Assembly: GCA_951406725.2 (NCBI GenBank)
Contig: OX597814.1
Coordinates: forward strand, 185,318,001 to 185,382,000
Origin: Octopus vulgaris
Taxonomy: Eukaryota
Direction: 5' to 3'
Length of the DNA stretch: 64,000 nucleotides
Part shown: piece by piece, positions 132 through 61,775 of the stretch
Position numbering within the stretch: position 1 is the stretch's first letter
How the letters are laid out: each line of letters begins with the position of its first letter
Notes under the pieces: generated by a model
What the model was told of the DNA's origin: nothing
What the model saw: the letters and a program-made list of their open reading frames with translations, nothing else
Databases searched by the model: none
Made by a program: the position numbers and the translations under genes

Positions 132-956
132 ATGAGCAATAGTATAACACATAGTAAAGTATACAAAAAGAGATATATTATACCTAAGAATAACAATTTA
201 ATACCGATGATGTCTACTAATAATGATAATATAAAAAATATTAAAAATAAAAAGGATATTATATGGTTAATTATTCCGTATGGGGCTCAAGTGATGACTA
301 ATGTTATTGAGACACTTAAAATAGTAAAAATGGTTTTTAAAAGAGACAATAGTTATTCAAATATATTTTCCAATAAAACCATAAGAGTGGGATACTCAAC
401 ATCGAGAAATGTAGTTAATATCATTTCCTCTATAAATAATAAGAAATTAAATAATTATTATAATAGCATAATAAATAATAGCTCTAGCCATAATATAACC
501 GATAGTGAAAGAAGTCTTAATCAACATAGAGAAAAATGTTCGTGTCGTGATAAGGCTAAATTTAAGCTCTCTAATAATTGCAACGTCGATAATATAATTT
601 ATAAATGTATAGTTAGCTCTAAGAATAATTATAAATAAGGTTTATATTGGATCAAGAGCTAATGAAATTAGAAAAAGAATATCCAAGCACTACCAGACCT
701 TTAAAAATCCCAATTTAAGTAAGTTCATAGGCTTAAATAAATATATATGGGAATTAAAATCTAGAAAAAGTACACCCTTAATTGAAGCGTTATAGGTAGA
801 GCCCACTACAATAATATTGGGAATAAAATGTGTTTATTATGCATAACAGAATTTATGAAACTACTACAGTCTAGAGATGAATTATTAAACACATATGAAC
901 GTGGAGTTAAATGTAGGCACCGAAGTAATTTTACATTTAGTAAAATGAAGCACTGA
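132..956 (+). pseudogene. Penelope-like retroelement C-terminal GIY-YIG endonuclease relic (frameshifted)
   Basis: ORF 132-638 ends ...KCSCRDK..NCNVDNIIYKCIV. A shifted frame continues KVYIGSRANEIRKRISKHYQTF..LNKYIWELK, and another gives MCLLCITE..LLNTYERGVKCRHRSNF* ending near 956. This is the IY/YIG motif plus the CxxC..E..LN..E..KCRH tail typical of PLE endonucleases. Confidence 0.85.
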
Positions 957-6761: not shown

Positions 6762-7758
6762 GGACAGACAGACAGACAGACAGAGACAGAGAGGGAGATG
6801 ATGTTGATGATGATGAGGAGGAGGAGGAGGTGGAAGAGGAGGAGGAGGAGGAGGTGGTGGTGGAGGAGGAGGTGGAGGAGGAGGATATGTGGAGGAGGAG
6901 GAGGATATGTGGAGGAGGAGGATAGGTGGAGGAGGATGAAGAGGAGTAGGGGGAGAGGAGAAGGTGGGGGATAGAAGGAGGTGGGAGAGAGAGGAGGAGG
7001 AAAGAGAGGAAGGGTGAGGGAGGAGGAGGAAAGAGAGGAAGGGTGAGGGAGGAGGAGGAGGGGGAGGAGGAGGAGGAAGAAGAAGAAGAAGAAGAAGAAG
7101 AAGAAGAAGGACGACGGGAATAACAGCGATCACAATGACGACGGCGACTTCAATATGACAATGTCACATCGTCATGATCATCGTCATTTGCAGTTGGTAT
7201 TGTTGTCGTAGTTATTGTTGCTTCTGTTGTTGCTGTTGTTGTTGTTGTTGTTGTTGTCTCATCTTATTCTGCTCTGCTCTAGTAACCTCACTTCTCAACA
7301 CAGTTTAAGTGATTAAAAACATTTGGGAGTGACCACCAGACTGAGGACGACGAAGAATTCCAGATGTGTCATGCTTCACAGTCTGGCTTGAAAAAGCACT
7401 CAGGGAGCGCTGCCCTCCACCACCACCCCCGCACTCCTGACACCTCCTCCGTTGCCCTCCACCACCCCGCATTCGTGACACCTCCTCCGCCCTTGCCCTA
7501 CCGTATACCCTCTGATGATTAGGACGAGAGGATGGAGAGGGAAGTAGAGGAGAAAGACGAAGGGGGAAGATGAGGGGAAGGACGAAGGAGGAAGAGGAGA
7601 AGATAAACGAAGGGGGAAGAGGAAGAGGAGGAGGAGGAGGAGAAACAAAAAGGGGAAGAGGGCAAAGGAGGGGAAAAGAAGAATAGAAGAAAAAGAGATA
7701 GAGAGAAGAACAATAAGAATTAGTAATAGTTTATAGTAGTAGTAGTAGTAGTAGTAGT

Positions 7759-16743: not shown

Positions 16744-16764
16744 CTTCATCACAAAACCGACTGC
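16744..16764 (-). CDS. Candidate 21-nt in-frame microexon (phase 1: GSRFCDE)
   Basis: Minus strand cctctcatccatttctttttcacag|GCAGTCGGTTTTGTGATGAAG|gtaact. Very strong acceptor and donor; length is a multiple of 3. Confidence 0.65.
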
Positions 16765-33493: not shown

Positions 33494-33658
33494 GGCGCAG
33501 GAGTGGCTGTGTGGTAAGTAGCTTGCTAACCAACCACATGGTTCTGGGTTCAGTCCCATTGCGTGGCATCTAGGGCAAGTGTCTTCTGCTATAGCCTCGG
33601 GCCGACCAAAGCCTTGTGAGTGGATTTGGTAGACGGAAACTGAAAGAAGCCTGTCGTA

Positions 33659-33703
<45 letters not shown>

Positions 33704-33911
33704 ATATGTTTGTGTGTCTGTGTTTGTCCCTCTAGCATTGTTTGACAACCGATGCTGGTGTGTTTACGTTCCCGTTACTTAGCGGTTCGGCAAAAGAGTC
33801 CGATATAATAAGTACTGGGCTTACAAAGAATAAGTCCCGGGGTCGATTTGCTCGACTAAAGGCGGTGCTCCAGCATGGCCGCAGTCAAATGACTGAAACA
33901 AGTAAAAGAGT
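33494..33911 (+). mobile_element. tRNA-derived SINE, full length, with internal (TA)n/(TG)n
   Basis: GGCGCAGGAGTGGCTGTGTGGTAAG (A box), GGGTTCAGTCCC (B box), conserved body GTGGATTTGGTAGACGGAAACTGAAAGAAGCC, and tail ...CAAATGACTGAAACAAGTAAAAGAG. Confidence 0.9.
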
Positions 33912-33915
33912 GAGA

Positions 33916-33958
<43 letters not shown>

Positions 33959-34667
33959 TCAATGTACCTTCTAACTTACCAACATATCAATACATTAATG
34001 TATCACTGTTAACACCATCAGTCCATTTACATATATCAATATATCTACATTTCCTTCCTGTCTCATTCCTTTTCTCTTTCCATAATCATCTCACTTTCTC
34101 TGCCTCCTCCTTCAATATCCCTACCCAATCACCAACCCCACCCACTCCACTACACAAGCTTTACTCCCCCACACACACCTCAGCTGCCATCCCTGAAAAG
34201 AAAATTGCTTAACTATCACAAGTTTCCGTTTTCCTCTCCTTTATTCCCTCTTTGTCAATAAATTATCGCTTCAGAAGGGGACACCTATTTCATCAAACCG
34301 CCCACGCAAATGGCTTTTTTTTTTTATTATTCTTTTTGTTGCTTTTTTTAAAATTTGTTATACATCCTTTCATCTGTTTGTTACATCGTGTTCCTCATTC
34401 TGTGCAGCTTCCTGTTGTCATTAAACTCTATTGTTGCCGCTGTTGTTCCTTGAGTGTACCCTTAGATCAGCTTAGGTCGAGCACACCTTTGATTCAAGAT
34501 ACTCCAGCCTTGTATACCAACGACTAATCCAACACTGTACATTTTACCTTCTTTATGTATATATACATCTTTTATCTTTTGTCTTTTACTTTTGTCAGTC
34601 ATTAGGCTGACTGAGCCTTGAATTTTTAGTCGAATAAATGAATCGACCCTAGTACTTCTTTTTCAGT

Positions 34668-34965
34668 GGAGGCACATGGCCTAGTGGTTAGAGCAGCGGA
34701 CTCGTAGTCGAGGGATCGCGGGTTCGAATCTCAGAACGGGTGATGTGTATGTTTATGAGCGAATCACCAAAGCTCCACGCGGCTCCGGCAGAAGGTAATG
34801 GCGAACTTCTGCTGACTCTTTCGCCACAACTTTCTCTCACTCTTTCCTCTTGCATCTTGCAGCTCACCTGCGACGGAACGCTGGTCCGTCGCAGGTGGGG
34901 AACCTATACGCCAAGGAAACCGGGAAAAGGGCCCTTATGAGCCAGGCACGGCTCGAAAAAGAACA
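34668..34965 (+). mobile_element. tRNA-derived SINE (second copy 62372-62668; related 12721-12966 minus)
   Basis: GGAGGCACATGGCCTAGTGGTTAGAGCAGCGGAC..GGGTTCGAATC head followed by a non-tRNA body shared between copies. Confidence 0.88.
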
Positions 34966-35092
34966 AGCCTGGTGCTTATTCAATCGGACTCTTTAGCTGA
35001 ACTTATGGGGATGCAAACACGCCAACACTGGTTGTCAAGCAGTGGGTGAAGGTGAGAGACAGATAAACAGGCACAAAGACGCACACATATAT

Positions 35093-35337: not shown

Positions 35338-35519
35338 GATAGCAAGTTTATTAAAAAGTAAGCAACGTTTTGAACCATGAAGAACTTGTACCGGATTTTT
35401 GCAGAGTTTTGAAAATTCTTTAAATATCTTTTCGTTCTAAGAGGCAACTCAAAGTTTTCTCTGATAATACAGACATAGATTTGACCAAATGCATCAATAA
35501 ATTAACATTGATATTTTTT

Positions 35520-36352
35520 TCACCGTTATTACAAAGCGCGATATTCGGGTAATTTTGCTATTCAACTTCAAAAAGGGACGTGAAGCAGCTGAAACCGTTC
35601 GCGATATCAACGAAACGTTTGGTGAGGAAATGACCAGTGAGGGGTCAGCTCGAATATGGTTTAAACGATTTTGCAGTGGAGACCTAAGCCTTGAAGATAG
35701 TGAGCGTAGAGGACGCCCATCTGTCATCGATGACGGTCAATTAAAGACCGTCATTGAGAAAGACCCACGAAAAACTATTCGAGAACTGGCAAAAGAACTT
35801 CAAGTTAGCCAGAAAACTGCTTGCAACGATTTGCATGCGATCGGAAAATGAAAAAAGCACGACAAATGGGTACCACACGGTTTGAATGAAAATCAGAAAA
35901 TGCGCAGATATGAAATTTGCTCGTCGCTTATTCTCCATAACCAGACCGATCCATTTCTCGACCGAGTTGTAACTTGCGAATTGTAACTTCGCAGTGGTTT
36001 GACTAAAGTAAAGCACTGAAAACCTTCCCTAAACCCGAGCTCTTCAAAAAGAAGGTTATGGTAACTGTTTGGTGGTGTACTGCTGGACTCATCCATTGTA
36101 ACTTCTTAAAACCTGGGAAAACCATTACTACAGAAACGTGTTGCCATAAAATTGCCAAAATGAACGAAAAACTGCTACTCCTCCGTCCCAGAGTAGTTAA
36201 CAGAAGGTGGCCAATCGTTCTTCATGACAATGCTCGACCACACGTTTCACTAATGATGCTCCTGAATTTCGGGGAATTTGACAACAAAGTTCTTCGCCAC
36301 CCAGCTTATTTCTCAGTCCTTTCTTCTCGCGGCTACCACTTTTCCAAACACA
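35520..36352 (+). pseudogene. Mariner (Tc1/mariner) transposase pseudogene, 3'-truncated by a SINE
   Basis: HTH region WFKRFCSGDLSLEDSERRGRP, WVPH motif, VVTCE, MVTVWW, LHDNARPH and HPAY..LS..YH.F motifs, with an in-frame stop at ~35849 and an internal deletion. Confidence 0.95.
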
Positions 36353-36812
36353 TTGATGCTGGTGTGTTTACATCCCGTAACTTAGCGGTTCGGCAAAAGA
36401 AACCGCCTTTCGTCGAGCAAATCGACCCCAGGACTTATTCTTTGTAAGCCTACTACTTATTCTATCAGTCTCTTTTGCCGAACCTCTAAGTTACGGGGAC
36501 GTAAACACACCACCATCGATTGTCAAACGATATTAGGAGGGACAAACACAGACACACAAACATATACACACACACATACATATATATACGACGGGCTTCT
36601 TTTCAGTTTCTGTCTACTAAATCCACTCACAATGCTTTAGTCGGCCCGAGGCTATAGCAGAAGACACTTGCCCGAGATGTCACGCAGTGGGACTGAACCC
36701 AGAACCATGTGGTTCGTAAGCAGCTACTTACCTCACAGCCACTTCTACGCCTATTATGTATGTATACATGTAAATATGTATGTACGTATGTATGCATGTA
36801 AATATATATATG

Positions 36813-39746: not shown

Positions 39747-40119
39747 TGATGATGATGATAATTTCACTTATTTGCCACCAGGGAGAATGATGAGGGAGGC
39801 AATATAAAGACAGAAATAAAGTGTAGGGGTTGACAAATAATGAAATGATAAAATAACTAAATAAGTAACAAAAAAATGTAAGTATGCATAGTATACGATT
39901 TCTATCCCTACTGCTTCGATCATTAACCCTTCAACAGTACCCCTTTTGTCCATAAAACAAATTATATATTAAGATAAAGGCATCCACCCGCCTTAGCCAT
40001 CCACCCGGGCATTGTTACCCTTAAAAGCCTGACATGTAAAGGTCACCCAGAATGAAAAATGCCTATTACATATTGTCGTTTTACCCTTCAACATTTTTGG
40101 TTGCTGTTGTTGTTGTTGT

Positions 40120-40172
40120 TTAAGCGGGATGTGCACTCAACCGTAACTGTCTCCAACTGCCATAATGATCAT
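40120..40172 (-). CDS. Candidate alternative last exon (phase 1: DDHYGSWRQLRLSAHPA*)
   Basis: Acceptor ctatcccctctctccaatttgtccacag|AT. Confidence 0.5.
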
Positions 40173-40275
40173 CTGTGGACAAATTGGAGAGAGGGGATAG
40201 AAAGAGAGACAGACAGACAGACAGGGGAGAGGGAGTGTTGCTATGCAATCTACTGAGGTGGCGGAAAGAGAGTAC

Positions 40276-40299
40276 CTTTATTGTGATGAGTGATGTCAT
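40276..40299 (-). CDS. Candidate 24-nt in-frame microexon (phase 1: DDITHHNK)
   Basis: ccccgtacactcctaag|ATGACATCACTCATCACAATAAAG|gtactc, preceded by a long pyrimidine tract. Confidence 0.5.
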
Positions 40300-40427
40300 C
40301 TTAGGAGTGTACGGGGTGGATGGAAAATGAGGAGGAGGAGAGGGAGGAGGAGGAAGAGGAGGAGGAGGAGAGGGAAGGAGGGAGGGAAGAAGAAGAAGAA
40401 AAAGAAGGGGAGGCGGAGGGGGAGGTG

Positions 40428-40468
40428 TTATTCAGTGCTTGATGACTTGATGACTTCGTGGCAAATTT
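40428..40468 (-). CDS. Candidate alternative last exon (phase 1: EICHEVIKSSSTE*)
   Basis: Branch-like gctaac/tctaat, then ctcttgctttaaaatccag|AA. Confidence 0.5.
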
Positions 40469-40535
40469 CTGGATTTTAAAGCAAGAGATTAGAAGGTTAG
40501 CAAATTGAGAGAGACAGACAGACAGACAAACAGAG

Positions 40536-40630
40536 CTACAGCATGGTCGGTGAGGTGGGCGCTGCAGATTTAATATTTTGGAGGTGGATGGAGGAAAGTG
40601 TGCGGCGGAGTAGCGGGTGGGCTGGGGGAT
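40536..40630 (-). CDS. Candidate alternative last exon (phase 1: DPPAHPLLRRTLSSIHLQNIKSAAPTSPTML*)
   Basis: GC-rich unique island with an open phase-1 frame after gatgacag|AT. Pyrimidine tract is weak. Ends in T-M-L, a class I PDZ-ligand-like tail. Confidence 0.5.
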
Positions 40631-40806
40631 CTGTCATCATATGCATTGCAAACAGAATGTGAATGAGTATGTAGGCAACGGGGGTGATAAAAATCTCATG
40701 TGTGAAATGAGATGAGATGAGATGAGATGAGATGAGATGGGAAGAGCTGGGATGGGTTTGGAGAAAAGCAGGACAAATACTCGTTCGTACTAACAAATTT
40801 TGTCAT

Positions 40807-40835
40807 TTAAAATGCCTCCATTGATTTCAAAGAAT
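40807..40835 (-). CDS. Candidate alternative last exon (phase 1: DSLKSMEAF*)
   Basis: Acceptor ccctgaaacctttccag|AT. Confidence 0.35.
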
Positions 40836-41005
40836 CTGGAAAGGTTTCAGGGTTCATTGCCGCTCAGTCGATTATTAATATTTTATTGGTTTGTCTTTTT
40901 GTTTCGTTTCGTTTTGTTTTATTTCGCCAAGTTTTAGCCAGTTCGTTTGTTACTGTCTGTTATTCATATAATGTCAATGGTTTTTTTTTTTATGATTAAA
41001 TAGCT

Positions 41006-41040
41006 TCAGTGTAAAAGAAGGATCCAAGGTGTCACTACTT
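41006..41040 (-). CDS. Candidate alternative last exon (phase 1: EVVTPWILLLH*)
   Basis: Strong acceptor cttctctttgttgctcttgttaacag|AA. Confidence 0.45.
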
Positions 41041-41416
41041 CTGTTAACAAGAGCAACAAAGAGAAGTTTGGATGGAGGAATGTCTAAATATGTTACGTTG
41101 GTATGAGAGAGATGGGTGTTGAATATAGAAGAGCGGAGAAAATTGGAGAGAAAGAAATTAGTCGAATAATTGTCCATTAGACAGTGTATAATTGTAGACA
41201 TGATTGCTCAGATGTGTGTCCCCTCTCCGACGTTATTTCTTCATAACTTTTAGGGAAATTACTATTTTTTTATGAAAATTATCTACAAATACCTTTCAGA
41301 TGCAGTATAAACTGGTTATATCGGAATATATCGCGCAAAAAAAATTATGGGAGGGCAGGCATACTTACTGAAACACATCACATAATGTTTTCGAATTTTC
41401 AGATTTCCTTTTGTAG

Positions 41417-41468
<52 letters not shown>

Positions 41469-42903
41469 CTGCGTGAGTTTGTCTGTCTGTCAGTTTGTCT
41501 GTGCCTGTGTGCCTGTCTGTGTGCGTGTGTGTCTGTGTCTGTCTGTTTGTCTGTCTGTGTCTCAGTGTGTGTGTCTGTCTGTCTCTGTGTGTATGTCTGT
41601 CTGTCTGTGCCTGTGTATCTGTGTGTGTCTGTTTGTTTGTCTGTGCCTGTGCGCGTGCGTGTGTGTTTGTCTGGTTGTCTGTTTGTCTCTGTGTGTGTGT
41701 GTATCTGTCTCTATGTGTGTGTGCTTGTGTGTATGTGTGTGTATGTGTGTGTGTCTGCGTGTATGTCTCTGTGTGCGTATGTATGTGTAAGCACTCACCA
41801 ACTTAATTTTTTTTTCTTCCTTTTCACATTAAATTCCGGTGTAAGCGTAATCTACATCATCTAAAATTTACTTCTAAAAAATTTCATCGAAAGGTATCCA
41901 TTCTTCTGAAAGTTATGAGGAAACAAATTCGATAGGAGAGCACTTTTGTGTAGTTATGCCCAATTTTAATCTACGAGAGAGTAACAGTGTTACAAGTGTT
42001 CTTGAGAAAGTAAATGGCTGAAGCATAAAGTGATGTGTGTAAGACGCATAATTGTACTGATACGTATTGGATGGGGAAAAACAAACTGTGCTTGCGTTGA
42101 CAGTGATAGATGTCTATCTGTAGTAGAGGCAGAATGGAGAAGATATGGATCGGGAGAAACTCTTAAGTGTAGATCTGAAAATGTTTGGCTTTGCAAAGAG
42201 ACAGCAAGAAAACAAAATACACTTAATTCCATTTCGTTCCTCTCAAATCATTTGCGCTCTAGCTCAGCTGCAGATTAAATTTGTGCATCCGATGGATAGT
42301 GTTTGGTTTATTTCTTTACAGCTTTCACTGATCTATGAGTATTCGATGTCCATTGCTCTTCATTTGCGAACTGTCGACTCGTACAAACAATGACGACATA
42401 AAGCAAAAAAGCAAACAAAGAAAAACAAAAGCAAAAACAGTAAAATGACAATGATGGTGATTATTAATAACTTGCCTTCAATTGTTTCGGCTCCGAATGT
42501 TCCAAGTTCAAATCCCACCGAGGTTAAATTTTCCTTTCATCCCTCAGGAACCCACAAGGGGCTACACACAGAGAAGACAAACAAGAACAGAAAAACGGAT
42601 TTAAGTCGATTATATCAACCCCAGTGCGTAACTGGTACTTATTTAATCGACCCCGAAAGGATGAAAGGCAAAGTCGACCTCGGCGGAATTTGAACTCTGA
42701 ATGTAACGGCAGACGAAATACGGCTATGCATTTCGCCCAGCGTGCTGACGTTTCTGCCAGCTCGCCGCCTTCAACAAAATAAAATACCAGTGAAATACCA
42801 TTGCTACCAAATAGTGTTAGTCAAGTGACAGTCAAGTACTAGGGTCGATATAATTGACTTTCCCTTCCCCTTAAAATTACTGGGTATATGCCAAAATTTG
42901 TGA

Positions 42904-46955: not shown

Positions 46956-47146
46956 CTACAGAGAATTATATAGAAAGTCCCTTTGATAGTCAGGACCTGA
47001 TAGACTCGACTTGTATTCCAAAGTGGCCTCCGCAGGTGGTTGCTCGGGTACTGGAAGAAAGGAACTTCTATCATATAATGGACTCCTTCTAAAAAGGAAG
47101 AGTACAGATCTTGTGTATGGGCCCCCAACTTGCGGCTGCGGAATGC
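46956..47146 (-). CDS. Candidate terminal coding exon (phase 1: GIPQPQVGGPYTRSVLFLFRRSPLYDRSS...DFLYNSL*)
   Basis: Branch-like ccttaat plus ctttcttgtctcctgcag|GC. 62 open codons in the phase left by exon 55906-56047. Unique, GC-balanced island. Confidence 0.7.
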
Positions 47147-54277: not shown

Positions 54278-55096
54278 ATGTCTATATGTGTATGTGTGTG
54301 TGTTGTGTCTATATGTGTGCGTGTGTGTGCGCGCGCGTATGTAGTGGAGCATTGGTGTGTGCGCGGTATATGGGACGTAGTGTGTTGCGTGATTAAATAC
54401 CCCGTTTTTTATATTCCATATTTGCTTCTGTCAAAAACGATTCCAATTGAAATAATTGAATGAATAACAAATTACAAACTATTATACAATAAACCAACAC
54501 GGTGGAGGCGGCGGTGGTGGTGGTGGTGGTGGAGGAGGAGGGGTGGAGGAGGGGTGGAGGAGGGGTGGAGGAGGAGGAGGAGGAGGAGGAGGAGGAGGAG
54601 GAGGAGGAGGCAGAGGAGGTGGAGAAGGAAGGGGAGGTGGAAGAAGAAGAGGTGGTGGAGGAGGAAGGGGAGGTAGAGAAGGAAGAGGAGGAGGAGAAAG
54701 GGGAGGTGGTGGTGATGGTGGTGCTGGTGGTGATGGTGATGGCGGTGGAGGAGGAGGAGACGGCGGTGGAGGTGGCGGACGGGGGTGGTGGCAAAGATGT
54801 TGGTGGTACGTAATGACATTTGTGCCGCTTGGTGGTGATAGTGGTGGTGGTGGTGGTGGTGGTGGTTGTGGCGGTGGTGGTAGCTGTGGTGATGTTGGGG
54901 TAAGTGGTTTAGTGCGGTGGTGGTAAGGAGCTGGTGGTGAGTAATGGCATTTGTACATCTTGTGTGGTGGTGGTGGCTTTGGTGGTGGCTTTGGTGCTAT
55001 TGTTGATAGTGATGTAGTTGCGGTGATGGTAGCGGCCGTAGATTTTTTGCTGGTGATAGTGGTGGAATAGGTGTTGGTGGTGGTTGTGGTGGTGAC

Positions 55097-55905: not shown

Positions 55906-56047
55906 CGCCATTGTGCTGCTCGATGTGTACGGTAAAACGATGTTGTGCAACTGGAGAAGAAGACTTGGGAGTTTTAGCGAAAATCTCTTGCTTCTTGAGC
56001 GCAGCCTCCTCTTCTGCTTCGTATCTTTTTTTTTTTTTTTCTATTTC
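55906..56047 (-). CDS. 142-nt internal coding exon of an unidentified gene (EIEKKKKRYEAEEEAALKKQEIFAKTPKSSSPVAQHRFTVHIEQHNG)
   Basis: gcctttctccag|GAA...GGC G|gtattt. Open frame, phase 0 to 1, protein-like charged helix followed by an SP-rich linker. Confidence 0.8.
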
Positions 56048-57670: not shown

Positions 57671-57683
57671 CTGACAGGACGAG
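57671..57683 (-). CDS. 13-nt microexon (phase 2 to 0: xSSCQ)
   Basis: catttatattttgcag|CTCGTCCTGTCAG|gtaagg. Consensus acceptor and donor; joins in frame to the exon at 56047. Confidence 0.7.
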
Positions 57684-59896: not shown

Positions 59897-59984
59897 CACG
59901 TCATCAAAGGGGAGAGGTGACGCTGGTGGTAGCGGGGTTGGAGTGGGGGCGGAGAGGAGCTTCCACTGACGCATTAGCGGGCCC
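59897..59984 (-). CDS. 88-nt cassette exon (phase 2 to 0: [29 protein letters not shown])
   Basis: gtttgcctacacttgcccgactag|G...GAC GTG|gtgaga. Proline-rich open frame joining exon 56047 in frame. Confidence 0.65.
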
Positions 59985-61750: not shown

Positions 61751-61775
61751 CATGCAGTGCCACGGGATGTCATAT
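61751..61775 (-). CDS. 25-nt microexon (either xMTSRGTA, phase 1 to 2, or xYDIPWHCM, phase 2 to 0)
   Basis: ttgttgtccgtttttgcag|ATATGACATCCCGTGGCACTGCATG|gtaaca. Strong splice sites. Confidence 0.7.

Follow-up and report, generated by a model that had tools for sequence, protein, structure and literature searches.

A candidate array of alternative last-exon acceptors on the minus strand of an Octopus vulgaris locus

The putative upstream exon and its surroundings

The window (the whole stretch of Octopus vulgaris DNA analysed, 64,000 nt) has the look of animal DNA, is rich in microsatellites and contains a putative upstream exon, hereafter the anchor exon, whose donor lies 14-16 kb from a group of candidate acceptors on the same minus strand. 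The upstream features are as follows.

61751-61775, minus: short candidate exon upstream of the anchor exon, length 1 mod 3, phase 2 to 0
59897-59984, minus: short candidate exon upstream of the anchor exon, length 1 mod 3, phase 2 to 0
57671-57683, minus: short candidate exon upstream of the anchor exon, length 1 mod 3, phase 2 to 0
55906..56047, minus: putative upstream (anchor) exon, 142 nt, 47 aa; open frame, entered in phase 0 and left in phase 1

The anchor peptide has a helix-like charged start, a Ser/Pro linker and an RFTV motif. Its composition was protein-like (top 1.7% of 3554 stop-free windows), and its donor is weak (85th percentile); were this donor skipped, the frame would run on to a stop at the end of 64 codons. 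The three short upstream exons all fit exon 56047 in phase and could be mutually exclusive exons or first exons; the 13-nt exon at 57671-57683 had the second-best splice-site pair on the minus strand. A 24-nt AG-GT unit at 54404-54427 (minus) is in phase 1, contains an internal ATG and shares its donor hexamer with the anchor exon; it is possibly a microexon or a first exon. When acceptor and donor scores were combined, the top unit of the window was a 21-nt AG-GT unit at 16744-16764 (minus), inside an apparent decayed LINE.

Relatives of the anchor peptide were searched for in the PDB, Pfam, protein collections, the ESM Atlas and metagenome contigs, collections that may lack this animal, and none was found. 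The protein searches covered lengths of 84-2000 and 25-83 aa, plus 1.84 billion representatives. The PDB returned one irrelevant match (E 3.8), none of 599 pattern matches in metagenome contigs was confirmed, and a separate search of such contigs gave 0 exact matches. In the literature, supplements aside, we found no description of this locus and no paper for the two peptide motifs.

The RFTV motif of the anchor peptide resembles, in our view, the RFxV motif bound by SPAK/OSR1, and the pattern KKQE..K..S..RFTV may resemble the segment that joins the CBS domains in ClC-2 channels of invertebrates. None of the 282 ORFs of the window contained a ClC transmembrane or CBS domain, and such domains could lie outside it. 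Passages of PMC2442181 describe, for CLH-3b of C. elegans, an insert introduced by splicing to which a SPAK-like kinase binds.

Pfam was run on 135 minus-strand ORFs of at least 42 aa across the window and gave no host-gene domain. This ORF set was low in repeats and omitted a handful overlying a single simple-repeat tract in the island described below. Together with 147 plus-strand ORFs, the search returned only a mariner transposase, a weak GIY-YIG match and two low-complexity matches. Because no Pfam domain was found in the minus-strand ORFs, a recognisable downstream exon appears to be absent within 40 kb. This modestly favours a terminal position for the candidate acceptors, in a search that misses short or disordered exons. 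The GIY-YIG match lay at 613-792 (plus; E 0.006) in very AT-rich DNA and is presumably the remnant of a Penelope-type retroelement. At 7300-7520, a GC-rich unique stretch held protein-like frames on both strands (69 aa on plus, at least 42 aa on minus) that were among the top scores of the window and had no Pfam match.

Candidate acceptors, tails and surrounding DNA

The preliminary description had placed seven minus-strand acceptors between 41040 and 40028. All seven coordinates proved to be an AG on the minus strand, and the peptides given for them were reproduced in phase 1, that is, when the final G of the putative exon 55906-56047 fills in the opening codon. To score their strength, we applied an acceptor model to all 6678 AG sites on both strands. 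The model is a rough one, built on approximate frequencies and untrained on this organism, and it holds no term for the bases after the AG. The named sites and the further candidates are listed together.

46956..47146, minus: separate strong acceptor with a 63-aa phase-1 frame; score 6.8; unique DNA; protein-likeness in the top 8%
41990..42117, minus: candidate acceptor with a 42-aa phase-1 tail; score 7.1, the highest of the region
41966..41970, minus: candidate acceptor leading to Asp and then a stop; score 3.5
41874..41905, minus: candidate tail EEWIPFDEIF and stop; acceptor score 3.8
40974..41083, minus: candidate TAG acceptor with a 36-aa phase-1 tail, first residue Asp; AG-free zone 121 nt, 7 UCUC/CUCU
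41006..41040, minus: candidate tail EVVTPWILLLH and stop; good acceptor (score 5.0), AG-free zone 41 nt, UCUC tract, UGC
40807..40835, minus: candidate tail DSLKSMEAF and stop; weak acceptor, score 0.9
40536..40630, minus: candidate 31-aa tail ending PTML and stop; score -2.3, without a pyrimidine tract; AG-free zone 62 nt, UGC
40428..40468, minus: candidate tail EICHEVIKSSSTE and stop; score 0.9; AG-free zone 65 nt, UCUC tract, UGC, CUAAY branch point
40276..40299, minus: candidate 24-nt in-frame microexon; AAG acceptor, score 0.6; AG-free zone 136 nt
40120..40172, minus: candidate tail DDHYGSWRQLRLSAHPA and stop; top-scoring named acceptor (6.3); AG-free zone 66 nt, 10 UCUC/CUCU
40021..40028, minus: candidate tail GF and stop; weak acceptor, score 1.4

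The named sites fell between the 80th and the 99.5th percentile of the 6678 AG sites, and their strength was uneven: three or four were weak, one was an AAG and one lacked a pyrimidine tract. We regard 40835, 40630, 40299 and 40028 as doubtful. The 24-nt unit at 40299 ends at AAG/GTACTC, with a weak donor (92nd percentile); its other boundary is the AAG scoring 0.6. Site 40468 was the only one to combine an AG-free zone, a UCUC tract, UGC and CUAAY. Two sites that had gone unnamed, 40252 and 40746, score as high as or higher than most of the named ones.

Further sites extend the set on the upstream side. The 41083 unit shares DNA with the 41040 unit in a different frame. The tail peptide of 42117 was not protein-like, with 80% of null scores above it, and a weaker AG at 42174 enters the same frame. 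The best candidates for real acceptors are 42117, 41905, 41083, 41040, 40468 and 40172. The frame at 46956..47146 is possibly a further alternative last exon; a homologue search for it was blank, in collections that may lack this animal.

Each stop-ending alternative gives a distinct in-frame tail, which carries little weight because any AG yields one (median random tail, 16 aa). When the seven phase-1 peptides were pooled, their amino-acid composition was equalled by 14% of random sets, whether drawn from the window or the island, and protein-likeness of the tails was similar in the other two phases. One tail had been singled out for a PDZ-ligand-like end and an RRxxS site. Neither holds up as evidence: a class I PDZ-like end occurred in 4.4% of 2788 random tails, and RR..S/T was present in 7% of the 345 tails that were 25-35 aa long. 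We therefore rejected the combination of PDZ ligand and kinase site as support for an array, as it is at chance level among six tails.

The DNA around the named sites includes the following features.

41418..41788, no strand: microsatellite dividing the acceptor-rich region into two parts
39763..41417, no strand: island lacking dispersed repeats and long tandem arrays; minus strand poor in G and rich in C; 17% short simple repeats
40882..40923, minus: two AATAAA (40923, 40887) and an A-rich stretch, downstream of the 41083 and 41040 tails
35501-36444, plus: broken mariner transposase (HTH_48, E 1.6e-15; Transposase_1, E 5.4e-18)

Self-BLAST assigned 19.5% of the window to dispersed and 24.5% to tandem repeats, and among the 32 stretches with neither kind the island ranked second in length. 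The description of the island as transposon-free thus stood to the extent that self-BLAST found no dispersed repeat in it; as a distinction it did not, since 23 runs of at least 800 nt are likewise free and 17% of the island is simple repeat. Self-BLAST also overlooks single-copy elements, as is seen from one of the 'repeat-free' runs, which is a mariner fragment. The strand skew of the island was the strongest of 72 bins in its direction, and three bins were stronger the opposite way. The strongest strand skew in the window, of opposite sign to that of the island, was in unique DNA at 33521-35000.

Searches for shared elements gave little. In the spans tested for tandem duplication of units, 40420-41410 and 41790-42550, only short two-copy matches were found. 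The 7-mers common to the upstream flanks of the seven sites were mostly simple repeats, YCAY clusters were not raised (34 versus 32.8 in shuffles), and Rfam had no match in 36000-60000. By eye we spotted CTCTC(C)AATTT at 41150, 40511 and 40191 (minus), 19-110 nt upstream of named acceptors; these three copies in the island are the only ones in the window on either strand. Besides the two AATAAA listed above, the minus strand has AATAAA at 40282 and ATTAAA at 40574; between 40280 and 38000 there is neither hexamer, that is, none behind the last three units. Part of 39900-41400 was present in 4 of 24 sequencing runs listed, at shares of 0.30-0.80 under three organism labels, with one run guessed to be RNA and none listed as such, and with no control stretch for comparison; we gave these runs no weight as evidence.

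Site number and junction signals

Clustering and orientation had been two of the three grounds for proposing a selected array. Scoring of both strands bore out the excess of minus-strand over plus-strand sites (12 versus 2 at a score of at least 0.5; 4 versus 0 at a score of at least 3), and the orientation is attributable to base composition. At a score of at least 0.5 the interval originally described was the top of 124 bins; at a score of at least 3 it was matched by 14 of 124 bins, or by 6 of 124 when sites in dispersed repeats were set aside. Clustering beyond chance was not upheld, as dinucleotide shuffles of the island attained the observed count in 128-470 of 500 cases across eight settings. 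Seven sites, taken as a number, were attained by 169 of 500 shuffles of the G-poor strand. The count and the orientation of the sites thus follow from the G-poor minus strand (13% G). The AG exclusion zones of 25-136 nt at the named sites were also as many in shuffles (424 of 500). The dinucleotide shuffle is a conservative test, because real tracts would create the skew themselves.

When the region was widened to 40001-42200, its minus strand was the top of 56 bins in four of five acceptor settings, with for example 9 sites versus 2 on the plus strand at a score of at least 3; in the fifth setting, 6 of 56 bins equalled it. The number of sites was attained by 79 and 70 of 500 shuffles. Local base composition by itself accounts for how many sites exist.

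The bases that follow the AG gave a different result. In the 40001-42200 region (minus), 10 of the 19 sites scoring at least 0.5 begin with AA or AT. The same start was seen at 69 of 387 sites elsewhere, and at 14 of the region's 94 other AGs. The probability was 0.01-0.02 once the choice of bases was corrected for, and the bias was attained by 1 of 500 shuffles, or by 0 of 500 at a score of at least 3. UCUC/CUCU tracts, a feature adopted from PMC8797185 and examined at YAG sites with an AG-free zone of at least 25 nt, were present at 7 of 19 such sites of the region versus 52 of 498 elsewhere. A UCUC count of 7 was attained by 63 of 1000 shuffles. All seven UCUC sites of the region start with A, versus 16 of 52 elsewhere, a result attained by 1 of 1000 shuffles, and the next-best bin had three such A-starting sites. 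The sites are:

42117, 41970, 41905, 41083, 41040, 40468 and 40172, minus: UCUC sites, all starting with A (Asp or Glu in phase 1)

Just three of these seven had been named in the preliminary description. Other acceptor-side elements were not enriched: UGC near the acceptor was found at 6 of 19 sites versus 108 of 498 (p 0.22), a CUAAY branch point at 1 of 19 versus 45 of 498, and a looser branch motif at 2 of 7 named sites versus 64 of 178 controls. The A-start bias and the UCUC tracts at the better sites exceed the shuffles, and this fits a terminal acceptor array wider than the one first noted. The A-start was first spotted in the sites originally picked, and the region edge and the thresholds were set after looking; the signal is therefore partly chosen post hoc.

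Competing explanations and known systems

Our best explanation, about evenly balanced in our judgement, is that some of the minus-strand sites at 40.0-42.2 kb genuinely compete as acceptors and open alternative last exons at the 3′ terminus of a putative animal gene. The sequence shows the sites with their frames and stops, and the motif statistics; that splicing takes place, which exon is the partner, that the position is terminal and that selection acts are inferred. A weak phase-1 donor, likely that at 55906, would be joined to one of several acceptors, and the split codon (G, then AN) would place Asp or Glu first in the tail. A stop would follow 1-42 codons on, with the sequence behind it forming the 3′ UTR. 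Acceptors that are weak and combined with long AG-free zones and UCUC tracts may leave the choice among sites to tissue-specific splicing factors. The idea of an array of alternative tails thus draws on the A-start bias, the UCUC tracts and the lack of a downstream Pfam domain, while the grounds on which it was first put forward (clustering, orientation and freedom from insertions) fail alone. The more ambitious proposal that at least 10 phase-1 acceptors in 2.2 kb constitute one selected switchboard, with Asp/Glu junctions, a tail of its own for each unit, combinations multiplied by the microexon and a microexon-like UCUC code, until now familiar from internal neural exons, that selects the last exon cell type by cell type, seems to us improbable.

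A simpler account, which we consider possible although on the unlikely side, is that the sites lie within an intron or between genes, in DNA poor in G and rich in pyrimidines and simple repeats, and that they are acceptor-like through composition and unused. Much of the evidence is as this account would have it: shuffles attain the count, some bins are more skewed on the other strand, the tails, the PDZ-like end and the RR motif are all at chance level, the upstream words in common are mostly simple repeats, and repeat-free stretches are frequent. It does not explain the A-start of the UCUC sites (7 of 7 versus 16 of 52; 1 of 1000 shuffles) unless post-hoc selection produced it. The A-start and UCUC statistics would serve equally well if the sites were real and belonged to internal or unproductive exons, with the microexon and stop-containing cassettes lying in a long intron of a gene that extends past the window. 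The donor of the 24-nt unit, further moderate donors at 40085, 40019, 40005 and 39988, and the ClC-2 linker that the anchor peptide may resemble would all fit such a gene; nevertheless, most units are missing a good donor, the 282 ORFs contain no CBS or ClC domain and the anchor has no PDB match, and we judge this arrangement quite unlikely.

No more credence can be given to the island as promoter, 5′ UTR and alternative first coding exon, in which an ATG at 40094 and phase-1 donors at 40085 or 40019 would replace the N-terminus before 55906. That ATG is in an A-rich context with both donors in phase 1 from it, a similar unit of ATG and phase-1 donor occurs at 54421-54404, and each of the three short candidate exons ahead of 56047 finishes in phase 0. 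However, the shared downstream exon would be more than 40 kb off, and the acceptor-side motifs would go unexplained. The donors concerned were at the 94th percentile, and this alternative is weak because the window has 49 comparable ATG-donor pairs and CpG is not raised (observed/expected 0.62), on which account a CpG-island promoter was rejected.

Alternative last exons competing for one donor, the reading that we prefer, can be compared with several known systems. Neural exons dependent on the eMIC domain have weak acceptors, long AG-free zones, UGC, UCUC tracts and CUAAY, according to passages of PMC8797185. As far as those passages describe them, the eMIC/SRRM4 exons resemble the candidates in their weak acceptors and UCUC-rich tracts, and the candidates also have long AG-free zones, of which shuffles give as many; they differ in that UGC and CUAAY are not enriched here and in that most units here end in a stop, whereas the known exons are short and internal. 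Dscam-type clusters hold many mutually exclusive alternatives in a row, in one phase. The candidates are likewise a row of alternatives in one phase, but in the spans compared here we found no homology between units and no docking-site pairing. Docking/selector pairing was rejected after duplexes of -12 to -27 kcal/mol were compared with a null mean of -24 (60 sites; the 215 nt behind the 55906 donor).

The closest parallels are genes with many tails. In OPRM1, according to passages of PMC8534031, a constant exon is spliced to many downstream exons to give unique tails of 1-88 aa with predicted kinase sites, and the C-terminal variants number 22 in mouse and 12 in human. One exon joined to many distinct stop-ending tails is the feature in common with what those passages describe, here as a candidate read from sequence alone; OPRM1 junctions were cloned and their function shown, whereas the present locus has candidate acceptors within 2.2 kb. 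For GluN1, the passages of PMC8257547 describe alternative last-exon acceptors that shift the frame and the tail, with a cassette exon upstream. SynGAP, in the partial account used here, is similar in having tails with or without a PDZ ligand. Unlike the present locus, GluN1 and SynGAP have two to four tails, not ten, in these partial accounts.

Multi-tail genes are already familiar from OPRM1, GluN1 and SynGAP, so another case would be unsurprising in kind. Octopus splicing is described, in passages of PMC9699675, as showing no major departure from that of other invertebrates, and for this reason a dense array would be a useful counter-example to the extent of that account. Should the gene turn out to encode a neural channel, transporter or scaffold, some 10 tails packed so closely would offer an easy minigene for studying last-exon choice in an invertebrate nervous system. 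If real, the array would join OPRM1 and the other multi-tail genes as a further case, notable for its compactness.
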